64,000 nucleotides of DNA from Deferribacterales bacterium (GTDB lineage: Bacteria > Chrysiogenota > Deferribacteres > Deferribacterales > Geovibrionaceae): contig JBFWLW010000002.1 of assembly GCA_050251945.1 (NCBI GenBank), positions 64,001 to 128,000 of the forward strand. Direction: 5' to 3'. A program made the position numbers and the translations under genes. How positions within the stretch are numbered: the stretch's first letter is position 1; each line of letters opens with the position of its first letter. This document shows, piece by piece, positions 40,718 to 64,000 of this stretch. The notes beneath the pieces are model-generated. The model searched no databases and had not been told where the DNA came from. It saw only the letters and a program-made list of their open reading frames with translations.

Positions 40718-42253
40718 TTAAGATTTCTTAAATTCTATACCAAGTTTTCTCATTTTATTTCTGAGAGTGCTGGGATTCATTCCGAGTTTTTCCGCAGCTC
40801 CGTCATCTCCGCTTATTTTCCATCTGGCTTGCTTAAGTGCCGTAAGAATATGTTTCTTTACTGTACTGTCAAGACATTCCGAACTTTCAGGAAATGAGGC
40901 GCAGGGGTCGTTTTCTATTACGCAGTCAAATTTCAGATGCTTCCCTTTGTTGATGATAAGCTCGCGTTCTATTATGTTCTCCATTTCGCGGACGTTGCCT
41001 GGCCAGTCATACCGCTTAATTCTTTCCGCAACGTAATTAGGAACCTTTGGAATATCTTTTATTCCAAAAGCGTTGCATTTCTTTTCGACAAGATATCTGA
41101 CGAACTCAGGTATGTCCTCTCTCCTCTTTCTCAGCGGCGGTATCTCTATGGGAAATACATTCAGACGCCAATACAAATCTTCACGAAAACGCCCGTCCTT
41201 GACCATTTCCCTGAGATTTCTGTTTGTTGCTGCGATTATGCGCACATCAACTTTTGTTGTTTTTCCGTTACCAAGTCTCTCTATCTCGCCGAACTGAATG
41301 GCACGAAGCAGCTTAACCTGCGACGCAAGCGGCAGTTCTCCGATCTCATCAAAAAACAGAGTACCCTTATGCGCAAGATGGAATCGACCGTTCTTAACAG
41401 TGTCCGCACCGGTGAAGGCGCCCTTTTCATGACCAAAAAGTTCGTTATCCACAAGAGATTCGGGAATGGAACCGCAATTGACCTTTATAAATGGTTCATC
41501 CTTTCTCAATGAATTAATATGTATATAATTTGCTATAACATCTTTTCCGACACCCGTCTCTCCGGTCAAAAGAACCGTACTGGGAAACTTTGCGATGCTG
41601 GAAGCCATTTCAACAACCTTTTTCAATCCGCCGTTTGCACCGACCAGAAATGCATTTTTCTCAACATTCTTATTTATAAACTCAATAAGATCGTGGCTTC
41701 TTCCAATAAGTCTGACATTATCTTCAATCAGTTTATTATAGACCAGAGCACTGAAAAAGAATTTTGAAACTGAATTGACAAGACACTTCAACAGTTTTTT
41801 ATGATGATCATTATATACATTGTCCTCAAAAGCTCTTATGACAAGCGCGCCGATTACTTTTGAAGAACCCTTTATCTGCAAAACAATGTCCGAGTTGCCT
41901 TTAAGCCCGATAAAATCAAGATACTCGCTCGGAAGGGGGGAATTATAATAACTCATATAGAAAACGTCTTCATCTCCGACACAAATATCTTTCTCACTCA
42001 GACTGGAAGGCATATCAGTTGCGACATTTGACTTCAGCAGAACACCACGCTCAACCTGACTGATGTTATACATCTGATTCGTGGCTTCCACGTAACATGC
42101 CATCTTGATGTAATCAATAGGCATATATTCACGAAGAAGTTTGTATAAATTCATCAGAAAATCATCCACATTGCTACTATTAAAGCAGATATGGGCGGCT
42201 TTATCTGCAAAACCGTCTAGATACAGCATAATAAAAAGTACCTCATAATTCAC
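40718..42253 (-). CDS. sigma54-dependent transcriptional activator (GAF-like input, AAA+, Fis-type HTH; FhlA/HyfR-like)
   Basis: [21 protein letters not shown] (intact), [46 protein letters not shown]; start may be ATG 42229. Confidence 0.93.
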
Positions 42254-42397: not shown

Positions 42398-42434
42398 TGC
42401 CGAATACGACAGCATTAATCGCCAAATACGGCGA
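42398..42434. promoter_or_regulatory. Tandem palindromic enhancer-like (UAS) sites, copy 1
   Basis: TGCCGAATACGACA and TCGCCAAATACGGCGA, centres 22 bp apart, conserved in copy 2. Confidence 0.65.
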
Positions 42435-42484
42435 AAACGACTCCGTGTAATATTTTTTATTAATAATATCAATAGCATATCGTT

Positions 42485-42500
42485 TGGCACATCTGTTGCT
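42485..42500 (+). promoter_or_regulatory. sigma54 -24/-12 promoter of cytochrome gene 1
   Basis: TGGCAC-ATCTG-TTGCT, consensus match with correct spacing. Confidence 0.85.
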
Positions 42501-42584: not shown

Positions 42585-42680
42585 GCACAGGAAGCCGGGG
42601 ATGCAAAAGCCGTTAGCCTCCAAATTATCGGTTTTGACATCTGCCTTTCACTTTCACACAAAAGTGATGGCTTCCGGTGC
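42585..42680 (+). ncRNA. Candidate structured cis-regulatory leader RNA, copy 1
   Basis: Three stems by eye (P1 42585-96/42669-80, P2 42600-12/42629-41, P3 42648-54/42661-67); loop TTAGCCTCC is anti-SD; 89/96 identical to copy 2. Confidence 0.6.
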
Positions 42681-42818
42681 TTTCTTTGAAGTGCAACAAC
42701 TATTTTACTGTATGGCAACAAACTCCTGCTAACTGACAACAGCACATAAAATTTTCAGGAGGCTAATTTTATTTATCTTGTGCCTGTCTCTGCGGAGTTA
42801 TTTATAGGAGGCTAATTT

Positions 42819-45227
42819 ATGTTGAAGCGATTCTTATTTGTTTTATTGTTCGCTCTCACCTGTGCTTTTATGCTTGCAGGATGCGGACAGGATGGTTCTG
42901 ACGGTGCTGACGGCACGAGCGCAGACACTGCAGCTATAATAGCGGAACTGCAGCAGCAGCTTGCAGACGGAACAATCACTATTGCCGAATACGAGGCCGC
43001 AATAGCTGAACTGCAGGCTGCGATTGAAGCAGCAGGAAAAATTTCATCTGTTGAATCCTGCGATACATGCCACGCAGAAGGCTCAGTTTATGAGCCCGGT
43101 CATAGCGGAAAACTGGCATCTTCCGGAACTCTTGTCGATTATACTAACGATTGGACAACCACTCTTGACAGTGTCACGATGGATGGTACAGCAAACACGG
43201 CTACAATTCTGTTCACTGTTACCAGCACAGGCGATGCTTTTTCAACCTCTGGTATAGGTGTTCTTCTTAACGTCTACGACTCAACTACAAATAGATGGTC
43301 GCAAATTGCTGATGCAGCAGGCGCCAGCGGAACAAGTACAACAATTACTGCAACAGGAACTGAAAACCAGTATCAGGCAGTAGTTACAGATACTGACATA
43401 ACAACAACCAGTGTTGCTGACGACACATTTATGATCCGTATTGCATATGCAAGCGGGGAAAATTCTTTTGCAATTGTCAGAATAGTGAAAAACAGTACTA
43501 TTTACGCAATGGATTCTGATGAAAACCCGAGAAACCTGTATAGCGATAACAGTTCAGACCCCAGCTGTGCAAAATGCCACGGCAAAGGCGAGTTTGAATT
43601 TGTTTCAGGTTCTCATGCTCACAATCCTTACACTATGCCCTATGTGACAGTTGACGGCGATGCTTGTCAGATATGCCACATCGGCGCAAGCACAACTGCT
43701 AAAAACCCCACAACTTTTGCAAGTAACTTCAAATCTGCGCTTGTTACCAAGATACACGGTATTCACGCGGCAGACGGAGCATACAGCTATACAAGCAGCT
43801 ATGAAGTTGATGCACCCAGCAATATGTCAGACTGCTCAGTATGCCACACAACTGACACTCAGCTTGCAAACGCTGTAGATAATACTAACTTCACATTTGA
43901 TCTCTGCGCCACATGCCACGGAGACAGTGTTTGGGACAGCGACCCTATAGTTGACGCATTTGATGCAGGAACACTTCCCAGTTTCCATAAAAACTATACA
44001 AGTGCAACCGATTGCCAGACAAGCTGCCACGACGGCGCGTCAGGTGCCGCAGCTACGGTCACACTTGAAACTATCCACTCAGAAAACACTCATAATATGG
44101 AAGTTTCACTGGGTAAAGATATTGCATATGTCATCGACTCTGTAAGCGTTTCCGGCAGCACCGGTACTATAAAATGGCAGGCGACTAAGTCAGGAGTTGC
44201 TCAGAATGTTCTCAGCACTTCGACTTCTGCGCCGGTTTTCAACAACATCAATTCCGAAAGCAGAGGCGGTAAATCTTACACTCCCGTATTCCGCTTCGGT
44301 TTTTACACCGGTGATGATATTACCAATCAGGGTAACTCAACTCAGGGCGGGCAGCCTACCCTGTCTGTAGCTATAAATGCGACAACAACTGTTGCGAGCT
44401 CAGATACCGGCTACTATGAAACAACCTTTACAATTCCGTCTACAGTGACCGCAGAAAACGGGGTTGTGATTCTTGAAGGCGTTCCTGTAGTTTGGGCGAC
44501 TGTAAACAACACCAGCACAGCATTTCTTGCTATAGTGGATTCTGTTTCTAAAAACTTCAAAGTCTCCGACGGCTCTGATATAGATGCACGTCGTGAGGTT
44601 GTTGATATGGAACTTTGCAAAAGCTGTCACACCGACATTCTCGGTCACGGGCACAGCAGGGTCAACAGCATAGAAACATGCGTACTCTGCCACAACCCTA
44701 ACGCCACTGATGCCTCGCCAAGAACTTCACTTGCCGCTCTTGGCTATGACACATCTGCAGACGGAAAAACCCAGCAGTCTTACGACTTGAAAGTCATGAT
44801 CCACAACATCCACTCAACGACTTTCACTGGCACTCCTTACTTTGTATACCGTTCAAGAGGCATTTACGCATTCTATAACGGAGATGATTCCACGCTGCCT
44901 TCTGATTTCGGCACAACCGGAGACGGAAGCACTAGCTGGAATAAGGTTAAGATACAATATCCCAGATCAATTGCATCATGTGACGCATGCCACATTAATG
45001 ACAGTCAGTTCGGCGCTGATCAGTCAAAGGCAATTCCTGTGACTGTTGATCAGGGCGATGATCTGACAACTCATGATGATGACACGGTTATCGGACCCAA
45101 TGCTGCAGCTTGTACAAGCTGTCACAAAGGAAGTATTTCGGATACCGTATCGACAACATCTCACACCAGAACTTTCGGGTATTACGTTAAGATGATTAAG
45201 GAAGAAATACTCGCTCTTATAAGCTGA
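42819..45227 (+). CDS. Decaheme c-type cytochrome lipoprotein, MtrC/OmcA-like (9 CxxCH + 1 CxxxCH)
   Basis: Lipobox LAGC (Cys22), GQDGSDGADG linker, heme motifs counted by eye, RREVVD..CKSCH and MIHNIH motifs typical of the OmcA/MtrC family. Confidence 0.88.
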   Translation: MLKRFLFVLLFALTCAFMLAGCGQDGSDGADGTSADTAAIIAELQQQLADGTITIAEYEAAIAELQAAIEAAGKISSVESCDTCHAEGSVYEPGHSGKLASSGTLVDYTNDWTTTLDSVTMDGTANTATILFTVTSTGDAFSTSGIGVLLNVYDSTTNRWSQIADAAGASGTSTTITATGTENQYQAVVTDTDITTTSVADDTFMIRIAYASGENSFAIVRIVKNSTIYAMDSDENPRNLYSDNSSDPSCAKCHGKGEFEFVSGSHAHNPYTMPYVTVDGDACQICHIGASTTAKNPTTFASNFKSALVTKIHGIHAADGAYSYTSSYEVDAPSNMSDCSVCHTTDTQLANAVDNTNFTFDLCATCHGDSVWDSDPIVDAFDAGTLPSFHKNYTSATDCQTSCHDGASGAAATVTLETIHSENTHNMEVSLGKDIAYVIDSVSVSGSTGTIKWQATKSGVAQNVLSTSTSAPVFNNINSESRGGKSYTPVFRFGFYTGDDITNQGNSTQGGQPTLSVAINATTTVASSDTGYYETTFTIPSTVTAENGVVILEGVPVVWATVNNTSTAFLAIVDSVSKNFKVSDGSDIDARREVVDMELCKSCHTDILGHGHSRVNSIETCVLCHNPNATDASPRTSLAALGYDTSADGKTQQSYDLKVMIHNIHSTTFTGTPYFVYRSRGIYAFYNGDDSTLPSDFGTTGDGSTSWNKVKIQYPRSIASCDACHINDSQFGADQSKAIPVTVDQGDDLTTHDDDTVIGPNAAACTSCHKGSISDTVSTTSHTRTFGYYVKMIKEEILALIS

Positions 45228-45272
45228 TATTTCGGATTTGATAATCACACACGGGGCGCTTTACGGCGCCCC

Positions 45273-45412
45273 CAGGTTGTTGACAAACTACAGATTCATA
45301 CAAACCCATTAGACTGCTTCGGGCTAAAGCCCTCGCAGAGACAGGTTTTTCTTTCCGTCTTTGCGAGCGAAGCGAAGCAATCTAGTCTTTTCTCCTCTTT
45401 GTCATCAGTCTG
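45273..45412. mobile_element. 140-bp MITE-like element with 15-bp imperfect TIRs and 20-bp target duplication
   Basis: CAGGTTGTTGACAAA...TTTGTCATCAGTCTG (12/15 complementary), flanked by identical GGGGCGCTTTACGGCGCCCC at 45253-45272 and 45413-45432. Confidence 0.7.
45310..45384. repeat. REP-like palindromic element, copy B (inside the MITE)
   Basis: TAGACTGCTTCG..CTCGCAGAGAC-spacer-GTCTTTGCGAG..CGAAGCAATCTA. Confidence 0.75.
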
Positions 45413-45438
45413 GGGGCGCTTTACGGCGCCCCTTTTTT
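45413..45438 (+). terminator. Intrinsic terminator of cytochrome gene 1
   Basis: GGGGCGC-TTTACG-GCGCCCC followed by TTTTTT. Confidence 0.85.
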
Positions 45439-45586: not shown

Positions 45587-45623
45587 TGCCAAATACGGCA
45601 GTATTAATCACCAAATATGGTGA
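45587..45623. promoter_or_regulatory. Tandem palindromic enhancer-like (UAS) sites, copy 2
   Basis: TGCCAAATACGGCA and TCACCAAATATGGTGA, centres 22 bp apart, same distance to -24 as copy 1. Confidence 0.65.
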
Positions 45624-45673: not shown

Positions 45674-45689
45674 AGGCACATCTATTGCT
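45674..45689 (+). promoter_or_regulatory. sigma54 -24/-12 promoter of cytochrome gene 2
   Basis: AGGCAC-ATCTA-TTGCT, aligned with the copy 1 promoter. Confidence 0.8.
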
Positions 45690-45772: not shown

Positions 45773-45868
45773 GCACGGGAAGCCGGAGATGCAAAAGCCG
45801 TTAGCCTCCAAATTATCGGTTTTAACATCTTATTCTCACTTTCACACAAAAGTGATGGCTTCCGGTGC
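45773..45868 (+). ncRNA. Candidate structured cis-regulatory leader RNA, copy 2
   Basis: Same 96-nt three-stem fold; anti-SD loop 45801-45809; followed by TTTTTT. Confidence 0.6.
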
Positions 45869-46007
45869 TTTTTTGAAACTCTATCAAGTATTTTTCCATA
45901 TGGCAACAAACTCTTGCCAATGATGAGACCGCAGGAAATTTTCAGGAGGCTAATTTATTGATCCTGTGCGTTTTTCACAAGCAGAGTTATATATAGGAGG
46001 CTAATTT

Positions 46008-48266
46008 ATGTTGAAGCGATTCTTATTTGTTTTATTGTTCGCTTTCACCTGTGCTTTTGTGCTTACAGGATGCGGACAGGATGGTTCTGACGGTGCTGAC
46101 GGCACAAGCGCAGATACTGAGGCTATAATAGCTGAACTGCAAGCGCAGCTTGCTAGCGGTGAAATCACTATCCAGGAATATGAAGATGCCATAGCGGATC
46201 TCCAATCTCAACTCAACTCTTCAAAAATTTCTCAGGTTGAATCCTGCTCCGTGTGCCACGATTCATCTGATATACATGAAGTTTCTGTGGGTCTTTACCA
46301 AGCAGCAAGTGTTTCTCTTACAATTAACTCGGCCACGCAAGCCACTTTAACGTTTAAGGCTGCTAAAGACGGTGTAAATAGGACTGACACAATCGGGCTT
46401 AGGCATGGATCTTTGTATTTCTATGACTCCGCCAACAGCGGATACAACAGATACGGTATAGATTCTTATGTTACAACTACCGGACCTGATTCAGACGGAA
46501 CTTACACATCCGTGATAGACATATCCGCAGATACAACACTCACAAGCAAGATTGATCTCACGAGTACTGATGTCAGGTATTGGCTTTCATACGGCAACAG
46601 CGGCGCAACCAATACAAACAATTTTGAAGTTGTTGAAGACTATCCTGAATCTCCTAACCCTTCAATAACAGATGCAAGCTGTCTCGGTTGCCACTCTGAT
46701 TTTATCTGGCAATACGGTACAAACAAAGCGACAAATTCGTATCACCACGGATCAACACCGCAAGGTGCCGAATCATGCATAGTTTGTCATTCCAGATATG
46801 ACAGCAACAGCGGCACAACTTTTATGCAATACGTACACGGCATACATAGCTCCGGCGAAGGTACAAATGGATATAAAACAATCAACTCCAAGCAGTTTAG
46901 TGTTCACTATCCTCAATCGCTTGCAAACTGTGTGACTTGTCATAATTCCGATGAAAGTCTTGAAGACGCTACGGCTGACTCGCAGTTTACTTACACTGTA
47001 TGTATGACATGTCATGAAAGCTGGGATTCTTTCGATAACCTGCCTTCTGCGATTGATCACACAGGATATACATCAGCTACAACCTGTACCACATGCCACA
47101 GCACAAGTGCAGCTATTGCACCTACTTTTGCAGAACTTCACACAGGTGTTGAAAAAGCAAGAACCTACAATATAGTTTATTTCACTCCCGAAATAACTGT
47201 TGATACTACAAACAGCAAGATATCTGTTGTTTGGGGTGCATTTGAAGATGCTGACGGTGATGGCGTATATACTTCAGGTACAGACACAGTACTCGATGTA
47301 ACCCAGACATCCGATTCCGCAGCACCGATATTTATGCAAAGCTATACAGACAGAGTTGTCGACGGTATTGCAAAATCTGAAGGTGTAAGAATACTTGTCG
47401 GTTACTACGGATTTGGAACAGATGATGTTGTAGCTTACAGCAGCTATGCTAAATCTGCTCTTACGACAACCGATTCAGCAACATCAGGTTACACTACCTA
47501 CAGCTCTTCAACAGGCAAAGCGACAACCACTATAGCTCTCAGCACGTCTAATATCAGTAGTTATGAGTCTACAAAAGGTATCGTAGGTATCATCGGTATT
47601 CCGTGGGTTAACGGTGAAAACGCATACGTTACAAGCGTTACGAAAGAGTTCAATATGGACGGAACAGCTGTTACTGCACGTACAGCTGTCATTAATAATG
47701 ACAATTGCGACGCATGTCACACAAGCGTAGCTCCCGCAGGCGCCAACGGTATCGCAATCCACCTGAATGAAGACTCTTCAGGCGCACACGGACACACTGC
47801 TATCGGCAGCGTTGATGCCTGTAGAATTTGCCACAACTCAAGCTCTGCAGCAGGTCACTATGCACAGCAGTCAAGGTCAATCGACTCTTACCTTCACGCT
47901 ATCCACGCTGAACAGCCTACACTTGCATCATATGACTCACTGACAATCAAATATCCTAACTATATTAAAGATTGCTCAGTATGCCACGATGACGGTACAT
48001 ACGAAGCACCTGATCAGACTAAAGCAGTTGGTGGTGTTGTTAGCGGAAGTGAACAGTCTGACGGGACTCTTTTGTCTTCCGATCAGGTTGTTACCGGTCC
48101 TGGTGCAGTTGCCTGTGGCTCATGTCACAAAGCACTCGCCATTGCTGACGATGACTCCGCGACTGTAACTTCTATCAATGCACATACAGGTTCTTTCGGA
48201 TACAGAGTATCTGTTTCCTCTATGCCTTATCTGGAAGTACTTCAGGCTGTTTTTGCCTTGTTTTAA
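46008..48266 (+). CDS. Decaheme c-type cytochrome lipoprotein, MtrC/OmcA-like (10 CxxCH)
   Basis: Lipobox LTGC (Cys22), ten CxxCH counted by eye, VHGIH / LHAIH and YP...CxxCH motifs. Confidence 0.88.
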   Translation: MLKRFLFVLLFAFTCAFVLTGCGQDGSDGADGTSADTEAIIAELQAQLASGEITIQEYEDAIADLQSQLNSSKISQVESCSVCHDSSDIHEVSVGLYQAASVSLTINSATQATLTFKAAKDGVNRTDTIGLRHGSLYFYDSANSGYNRYGIDSYVTTTGPDSDGTYTSVIDISADTTLTSKIDLTSTDVRYWLSYGNSGATNTNNFEVVEDYPESPNPSITDASCLGCHSDFIWQYGTNKATNSYHHGSTPQGAESCIVCHSRYDSNSGTTFMQYVHGIHSSGEGTNGYKTINSKQFSVHYPQSLANCVTCHNSDESLEDATADSQFTYTVCMTCHESWDSFDNLPSAIDHTGYTSATTCTTCHSTSAAIAPTFAELHTGVEKARTYNIVYFTPEITVDTTNSKISVVWGAFEDADGDGVYTSGTDTVLDVTQTSDSAAPIFMQSYTDRVVDGIAKSEGVRILVGYYGFGTDDVVAYSSYAKSALTTTDSATSGYTTYSSSTGKATTTIALSTSNISSYESTKGIVGIIGIPWVNGENAYVTSVTKEFNMDGTAVTARTAVINNDNCDACHTSVAPAGANGIAIHLNEDSSGAHGHTAIGSVDACRICHNSSSAAGHYAQQSRSIDSYLHAIHAEQPTLASYDSLTIKYPNYIKDCSVCHDDGTYEAPDQTKAVGGVVSGSEQSDGTLLSSDQVVTGPGAVACGSCHKALAIADDDSATVTSINAHTGSFGYRVSVSSMPYLEVLQAVFALF

Positions 48267-63142: not shown

Positions 63143-64000
63143 ATGTCCAAAGAAATAATTGTAAACTCCACGCTCAGCGAGGCTCGTGTGGCGGTTCTGG
63201 AGAACGGAAACCCTGCCGAGATACTTATCGAACGTGCGCACAGCAAGAACGTTGCTGGAAATATATATAAAGGACGGGTCATAAAAGTTCTGCCCGGCAT
63301 ACAGTCGGCATTCGTTGACATCGGACTTTCAAAAGCGGCATTTCTGCCCGCAGCAGACGTCTATGTCGAAAACGGAGAGCGCGTAAGCTTTCTGGAGGCT
63401 ATGGACGGAATGCAGGACGAGGCGGAGGTGGACACCATCGCGCCGGAACCGAAAGAAATCCCGCCTATCGAACAGCTTCTCAAAGAGGGTCAGGAGATCG
63501 TCGTTCAGGTGGCGAAAGAATCCATCGGACAAAAAGGCGCACGCCTGACAACTCACCTGACGGTTCCCGGACGCTATATCGTTCTTATGCCCGGATACGA
63601 ACACGTCGGAGTATCACGTAAAATTGAAGAGGAAGAGGAACGGGAACGCCTGCGCCTGATCCTTAAAGATATGAAGAAAGAGGGTATGGGACTGATAGCC
63701 CGTACAGTCTCCGCAGGGCACGACCATGAAGAGATAGTGGCGGATCTCGACTACCTTGAGCGCCTCTGGTCGAAGATTATGGATAATATGGCGGCTTCAA
63801 AAGCGCCGTGTATGATATACGAGGATCACGGACTTATCTTCCGCATCCTTCGCGATACTGCAACAGCGGATGTCAGCCGTATCATTATTGACAATAAGGC
63901 GGACTACCTCAAGATAAAATCGTTCCTTCGCGAATACATGCCGGACATGAACATCGAAGTGACGCTTTACACAAACGACATCCCCATATTCGACTATTAC
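63143..64000 (+). CDS. rng: Ribonuclease G/E family protein, 5' part (runs off window)
   Basis: Hand translation MSKEIIVN..RVAVLENG, GNIYKGRVIKVLPGIQSAFVDIG, VQVAKESIGQKGARLTT. Confidence 0.92.
   Translation, partial: MSKEIIVNSTLSEARVAVLENGNPAEILIERAHSKNVAGNIYKGRVIKVLPGIQSAFVDIGLSKAAFLPAADVYVENGERVSFLEAMDGMQDEAEVDTIAPEPKEIPPIEQLLKEGQEIVVQVAKESIGQKGARLTTHLTVPGRYIVLMPGYEHVGVSRKIEEEEERERLRLILKDMKKEGMGLIARTVSAGHDHEEIVADLDYLERLWSKIMDNMAASKAPCMIYEDHGLIFRILRDTATADVSRIIIDNKADYLKIKSFLREYMPDMNIEVTLYTNDIPIFDYY

Follow-up and report, generated by a model that had tools for sequence, protein, structure and literature searches.

The window analysed here, a 64,000-nucleotide (nt) stretch of a Deferribacterales genome (contig JBFWLW010000002.1, positions 64,001 to 128,000; part of contig C2 of genome G000 in our numbering), carries two copies of an RNA element on its forward strand, at 42585-42680 and 45773-45868, each in the leader of a gene for an OmcA/MtrC-like multiheme cytochrome. 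The element is a real, undescribed structured RNA. We consider it probable, at roughly 0.6, that it represents a new family of base-pairing small RNAs (sRNAs) associated with untranslated regions (UTRs), which would cross-repress OmcA/MtrC paralogues in the manner of NarS.

The original prediction described a 96-nt core identical at 89/96 positions between the two window copies, and its coordinates proved exact, with the differences falling at positions 5, 15, 52, 59, 60, 61 and 63. The accompanying statement that the core is more conserved than its flanks held for the comparison of 20-nt bins (16-20 identities against 12-18) but not as a distinction, as the ribosome-binding site (RBS) and first codons also reach 18-20/20 and core identity alone is therefore not special. 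The three-way junction drawn by eye is the predicted minimum-energy structure of both copies (-40.1 and -40.3 kcal/mol), with folding z-scores of -4.5 and -6.2, none of 200 shuffles equally stable and a weaker fold on the opposite strand (z -3.4 and -3.1). In copy 1 it consists of P1 (42585-42596 with 42669-42680), P2 (42599-42612 with 42629-42642), the P2 loop (42613-42628) and P3 (42648-42654 with 42661-42667). The loop is 16 nt long with a weak 3-bp extra pairing inside and contains the anti-RBS seed TTAGCCTCCA (42613-42622; 45801-45810 in copy 2), within which CCUCC is wholly open, at an opening cost of 0.0 in four of the five copies described below and 1.4 kcal/mol in that of genome G006. 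The fold is closed by a P1 of 12-15 bp that is followed by U, and the U-tract noted behind P1 in the window (42681-42687 and 45869-45874), a candidate 3' end, has a U-rich counterpart in 5/5 copies. A scan of the whole window against Rfam 15 returned five tRNAs only, in agreement with the earlier statement that no known family was recognised. With E-values allowed to 10, copy 1 gave only sub-threshold noise and the diverged copy on contig C4 of the same genome gave nothing.

Altogether five copies were found in 3/68 genomes of the phylum, each adjoining an omcA paralogue, and their range is 3/7 genomes of one genus, inferred from the nearest named record, Seleniivibrio woodruffii (93% protein identity). 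A BLAST search of 61 genomes gave one further copy, in G004, where it lies 5' of the orthologous gene. A covariance model built from these three copies (R1) then identified, in loci that had been retrieved for their proteins, two diverged copies, one in the genome of the window (G000:C4:119219-119326, 45 bits) and one in G006 (C3:192176-192284, 19.5 bits, E 0.016). A second model, from four copies (R2), found no further copy of the kind in the 68 phylum genomes under strict filters or in 16 genomes of the family under laxer ones. Its weak matches in G014, G002, G008 and G037 lack the loop, that in G037 being 5S rRNA, and four other pattern matches gave no score; all were set aside. No element was found near cluster-head genes or near the omcA genes of other genera, and each of four genomes of the sister genus has one site of the complementary type, the omcA RBS itself, with no second copy. 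Viral contigs, plasmids and phages contained no copies, and a metagenome pattern scan yielded 39 stretches of which none fell under E 0.8 with R1, the pattern being that of the window subfamily and blind to the 3' type.

The positions of these copies bear directly on function. Three of the five lie in 5' leaders and two, those on C4 and in G006, lie 3' of the gene, about 110-140 nt past the omcA stop codon on the same strand and beyond the called terminator; the gene following the G006 copy is convergent and the next start on the same strand after the C4 copy is about 600 nt off. Because they are downstream and past the terminator, these two copies cannot be ordinary 5' switches for their own cytochrome genes. 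The proposal that the element is by nature a riboswitch-like cis switch is not supported on this point or by the target sites, as the 3' copies fit the RBS of another paralogue over 14 nt and that of their host gene over 8 nt.

The C4 and G006 copies also fold strongly (z -6.4 and -5.3), and compensatory changes in the stems, for which the original prediction had asked, are present. In a model-fitted alignment of four copies both sides have changed at 9 of the 31 pairs, and 94.9% of cells are paired compared with 42-48% for slid partners; a plain MAFFT alignment of all five copies gives 7/31. The credible compensatory changes are located in P1 and upper P2, and one-sided stem changes involve G-U pairs on the forward strand. 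Constant across copies are the outer part of P1, the loop octamer TAGCCTCC and the U-rich tail, so that the loop UAGCCUCC and the 3' U-tract are held while the stems change with compensation.

The complementarity of the loop to the cytochrome RBS, first noticed within the window, extends to the whole omcA family of this genome. Among 2651 gene starts of G000 predicted by script, the octamer complement GGAGGCTA occurs at five, which include all four omcA paralogues and one other gene. The RBS 9-mer GGAGGCTAA is common to these four paralogues, a fact missed earlier, and was present in 10/10 omcA-type genes retrieved from the genus compared with none of the five genes of the family's other genera whose RBS could be read, the gene starts of G011 and G030 being unresolved in this count. 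The longest match belongs to the C4 copy, which is perfectly complementary over 14 nt to the RBS of the paralogue on contig C8, the longest among the 2651 starts (next best 10), and over 8 nt only to that of its own gene. This C8 paralogue stands at the head of a 17-kb run that includes seven further multiheme genes, one of them with 28 motifs. The six extra bases of the 14-mer precede GGAGG in 1/469 starts. The same arrangement is seen in G006, where the 3' copy is perfectly matched over 14 nt to the RBS of that genome's own cluster-head gene and over 8 nt to its host gene. Allowing one mismatch, the 14-mer occurs twice in G000 and twice in G006, as RBS and complemented in the element, and it is kept in both although the stem partners differ.

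Net pairing energies after opening costs follow this pattern, the C4 copy reaching -16.0 to C8 versus -7.5 to its own gene and the G006 copy -13.5 to the cluster-head gene versus -3.5. For the window copies the match to the C4 paralogue is 10 nt long, which ties for best among the 2651, and those to the C8 site and to their own sites are 9 nt, a length reached by 13/2651 starts; the net energies of a window copy are -12.3 (C4), -11.0 (C8) and -10.3 and -8.0 kcal/mol (own genes), gaps too small to assign one target. The element thus combines a seed that is conserved in 5/5 copies and accessible with a complementarity, over another mRNA's Shine-Dalgarno (SD) sequence, that is conserved at 14 nt in 2/2 3' copies, and at 9-10 nt only, with a target that is not unique, for the window copies. 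Membership among the Hfq-dependent small RNAs is plausible.

Two other matches were noted in G000. A small gene at C1:202870, which we take to be flavodoxin-like, pairs with the loop of the C4 copy at -26.1 kcal/mol with G-U pairs, as well as C8 does, and could be a second target. A 15-nt loop match on contig C14 was rejected as a target because the sense strand of a coding gene carries it.

In the model that we favour, the sigma54 promoters of the window would give rise either to an RNA of about 175 nt ending at the U-tract or to a piece cut out of the leader, and read-through past the U-tract would produce the cytochrome mRNA. At the C4 and G006 loci the RNA would come from read-through of the host gene's terminator. 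The loop, probably helped by Hfq, would then pair over the Shine-Dalgarno sequence of omcA mRNAs and block their translation, such that switching on an accessory surface cytochrome would turn down its paralogues. Through their 14 nt the 3' copies would target the gene heading the main multiheme cluster; for the window copies the best predicted fit is the C4 paralogue, and they may act family-wide, including feedback on their own gene. Hfq is encoded in all four genomes tested, and G000 has one gene of the RNase E/G family. It is to our knowledge not settled how metal reducers select between their many surface cytochromes, and with the RNA and its predicted target both named, the 14-nt duplex is a prediction that a standard reporter can test. 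More tentatively, and in our view with the odds against the full scheme, one RNA module may travel with OmcA/MtrC paralogues and work from either end of the gene, the 3' half of its loop being retuned to each sibling's RBS, in a hierarchy running from the window genes to C4 to the C8 cluster head with one surface cytochrome type displayed at a time. In addition, homologous RNAs placed 5' of certain genes and 3' of different ones would show how UTR-derived sRNAs move.

Two side observations concern Hfq and the RNase E/G family. The only RNase E/G family match of G000 is located at the end of the window (63560-64000; G000:C2:127560-128369), in a frame of 508 aa. Besides the ordinary Hfq, a 182-188-aa protein that has two Hfq domains is encoded at G000:C3:272125-272556 and in all four genomes of the genus tested.

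A number of results weigh against a trans-acting family. The copies are few, five in number and in effect two subfamilies, and the covariation counts are for that reason few events, in addition to which a model-fitted alignment leans to structure. Support for P3 is poor in the 3' copies, whose minimum folds as modelled do not recover it, and the minimum fold of the G006 copy buries part of the seed. A promoter for the C4 and G006 copies was not found, and a terminator scan called none at P1 and the U-tail; the stem there is long-range rather than a compact terminator, although U-rich tails follow it in 5/5 copies. The 5S rRNA of these genomes also has a long-range closing helix followed directly by U, which proves that such ends exist here, not that they terminate. 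As the four omcA RBSs are homologous they amount to about one event, and the fair odds of the octamer match are about 5/469 GGAGG starts. The 14-nt target site also occurs in G002 and G004, both without a 3' copy, and in G004 a 5' copy is present while a C4-type paralogue was not found. When starts are ordered by raw duplex energy, C8 comes third of 2651 for the C4 copy, and the omcA sites rank 5, 14, 15 and 24 for the window copies.

Cis action of the window copies is possible, but that they act mainly in this way is in our estimate rather unlikely. Here the loop would pair, as a pseudoknot, with the RBS of its own gene or an upstream duplicate of it, or P1 with its U-tract would attenuate transcription, under the control of a protein or another RNA, and the 3' copies would be a separate trans-acting offshoot. 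Each leader contains two GGAGGCTAA sites, which had been overlooked; the upstream one (42758-42766 and 45945-45953) may be a decoy or the SD of a possible short upstream open reading frame (42771-42815, ATT start). Three of five copies sit in a leader that has two complementary sites of 9 nt lying 130-190 nt downstream of the element, the upstream 9-mer is whole in 3/3 element-bearing leaders and lost in one related leader without the element (G006 C5), and the lack of a C4-type paralogue in G004 is also in favour. The leader comparison is however a single contrast among close relatives, the window loop is mismatched at the tenth base of its own site and matched at the C4 paralogue, and accessibility is lower at its own sites. 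In 4/4 cases no significant fold was obtained for the downstream leader, which thus gives no hint of an expression platform; a nested cis helix lies 8-13 kcal/mol above the minimum fold, for which reason a cis role would need a pseudoknot.

The leaders contain two further features. A frame of 14-16 codons with an ATT or TTG start located behind the upstream SD (42771-42815 and 45957-46004) ends at a TAA inside the true RBS in 4/4 related leaders and is in frame with the cytochrome gene, which could mean translational coupling; these frames are weak as their starts were chosen after the fact. A conserved motif, GGCAACAAACTC(C/T)TG, lies at 42713-42729 and 45901-45917 and is recognisable also in G004 and at G006 C5, and its CTC(C/T)TG part might base-pair with either of the two SD regions. 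The GG-GC spacing at 42713, read from the sequence, is 12 instead of 10, and a second sigma54 promoter there was rejected for that reason.

We regard it as improbable that the element is simply a stability or termination structure without a pairing role, its loop being a leftover inverted copy of the RBS. The small number of copies would suit this, as would the occurrence in G002 of a simple hairpin terminator that shares the outer stem and the overlap of the G006 copy's tail with the end of a convergent gene; it leaves aside, however, a loop that stays invariant while the stems covary and a 14-nt match to a gene on another contig that is kept in two species. An origin from 5S rRNA was rejected, as comparison with the 5S of G000 and G006 gave z 0.1-1.5 with interiors at shuffle level, and R2 gives no match to five 5S genes of the genus. 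The 5S rRNA of G037 (L190:1501-1643) has a terminal stem and U-tail equal to the invariant outer P1 of the element; the genus's own 5S differs.

The ligand-binding riboswitch of the original prediction, responding to a cyclic dinucleotide, heme or metal, now appears very improbable. A three-way junction in the long leader of surface-cytochrome genes and an outer P1 of invariant sequence are in keeping with it, and cGAMP riboswitches on Geobacter electron-transfer genes offer a precedent as far as the available descriptions go. The copies however lack the consistent 5' position (3/5 are 5' and 2/5 are 3' of the gene) and an Rfam match, the P2-P3 linker and P3 vary freely and the conserved unpaired bases are mostly those of the anti-RBS loop. 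The c-di-GMP-I and cGAMP riboswitch models of Rfam had no match in the window; a genome-wide RF01051 search was also empty but uninformative, as its controls were equally silent.

Scarcely credible is a DNA-level feature in which loop and RBS would serve as short inverted repeats in inversion or paralogue exchange, since, although some genes share RBS and signal peptide with mature domains in different clades, the cis repeats are only 8-9 bp, the G-U-type changes and one-sided U-tail point to RNA, and the contigs of relatives show no strand-changing joint (a weak point, as contigs drop rare forms). The genes concerned are the cluster-head omcA genes L098, L099, L100 and L102, which have a common position, RBS and signal peptide and whose proteins are scattered over the tree, that of G006 grouping with window gene 1 and that of G000 with another genus; this combination of shared ends and different clades suggests that the mature domain has been exchanged among them. 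In G000 the cluster (C8:14694-31524) comprises the omcA-like head, a cytochrome b, an NHL protein, a protein of 1083 aa in which CxxCH occurs 28 times and another five proteins of 6-8 hemes.

Returning to the favoured trans-acting sRNA, its closest functional analogue would be NarS, with RhlS and Rli51 resembling the 5' copies. The c-di-GMP-I and cGAMP (GEMM-I) riboswitches, in the descriptions available, likewise accompany electron-transfer genes of metal reducers; the element differs in having no match to Rfam models and copies 3' of genes. According to the accessible part of its report, NarS of Salmonella and E. coli forms a perfect 14-bp duplex with nirC that is conserved on both sides, and, as proposed here, an RNA from the 3' end of an anaerobic-respiration gene covers the SD of a functionally related gene (PMC7038943). 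Its seed is described there as single-stranded and located upstream of the terminator hairpin that NarS has in common with its mRNA, whereas the seed of the element is a loop inside a three-way junction; unlike NarS the element lies beyond the gene's own terminator, has a paralogue as predicted target and is also found in 5' leaders (PMC7038943). RhlS of Pseudomonas aeruginosa, as portrayed in the portion of the article available, is a 5'-UTR sRNA arising by leader termination that acts on its own and another gene, but the effect on its own gene is raised translation and the receptor that it represses is unrelated, while the predicted targets of the element are paralogues (PMC6786874). Rli51 of Listeria monocytogenes is a leader RNA freed by premature termination with roles in cis and trans; it belongs to another phylum and has another sequence, and the abstract mentions no 3'-located homologues (PMC11394854). 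In the metal reducer Shewanella oneidensis, the Hfq-dependent sRNA RyhB lowers c-type cytochrome expression, though by the partial account consulted it is stand-alone, Fur-controlled, broad in its target set and not tied to omcA genes (PMC5826389). A literature search, with supplements and subscription papers outside it, found no paper that describes a base-pairing sRNA against OmcA/MtrC-type paralogues or motifs of this sort in Deferribacterota; the element could be contained in sRNA catalogues of supplements.

The locus is flanked by rpoC and rpsL, named from their translations. On the reverse strand a divergent gene (40718-42253) encodes a sigma54-dependent activator by its AAA+ and HTH_8 domain matches and is the likely driver of both sigma54 promoters. 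As the original prediction held, each cytochrome gene has its own -24/-12 box (42485-42500, which is kept in G004, and 45674-45689, both forward), giving leaders of about 308 nt if transcription starts 12 nt beyond the -12 box. Upstream of the first, two imperfect palindromes 22 bp apart (42398-42432) recur before copy 2 (45587-45621) and as one site in G004; they are likely enhancer sites. A weak IHF-like site (42467-42479, forward) is present in two of three leaders. Cytochrome gene 1 (42819-45227, RBS 42807-42815) encodes 802 aa with 9 CxxCH and an N-terminus that reads as lipoprotein type, and gene 2 (46008-48266, RBS 45996-46004) encodes 752 aa with 10 CxxCH, all on the forward strand; the two score 180 and 171 bits against TIGR03507, under its cut-off of 209. 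Between the genes, at 45253-45432, two terminator-like hairpin copies surround a short stretch that is matched by contigs of many other organisms and is likely a small mobile palindromic repeat.
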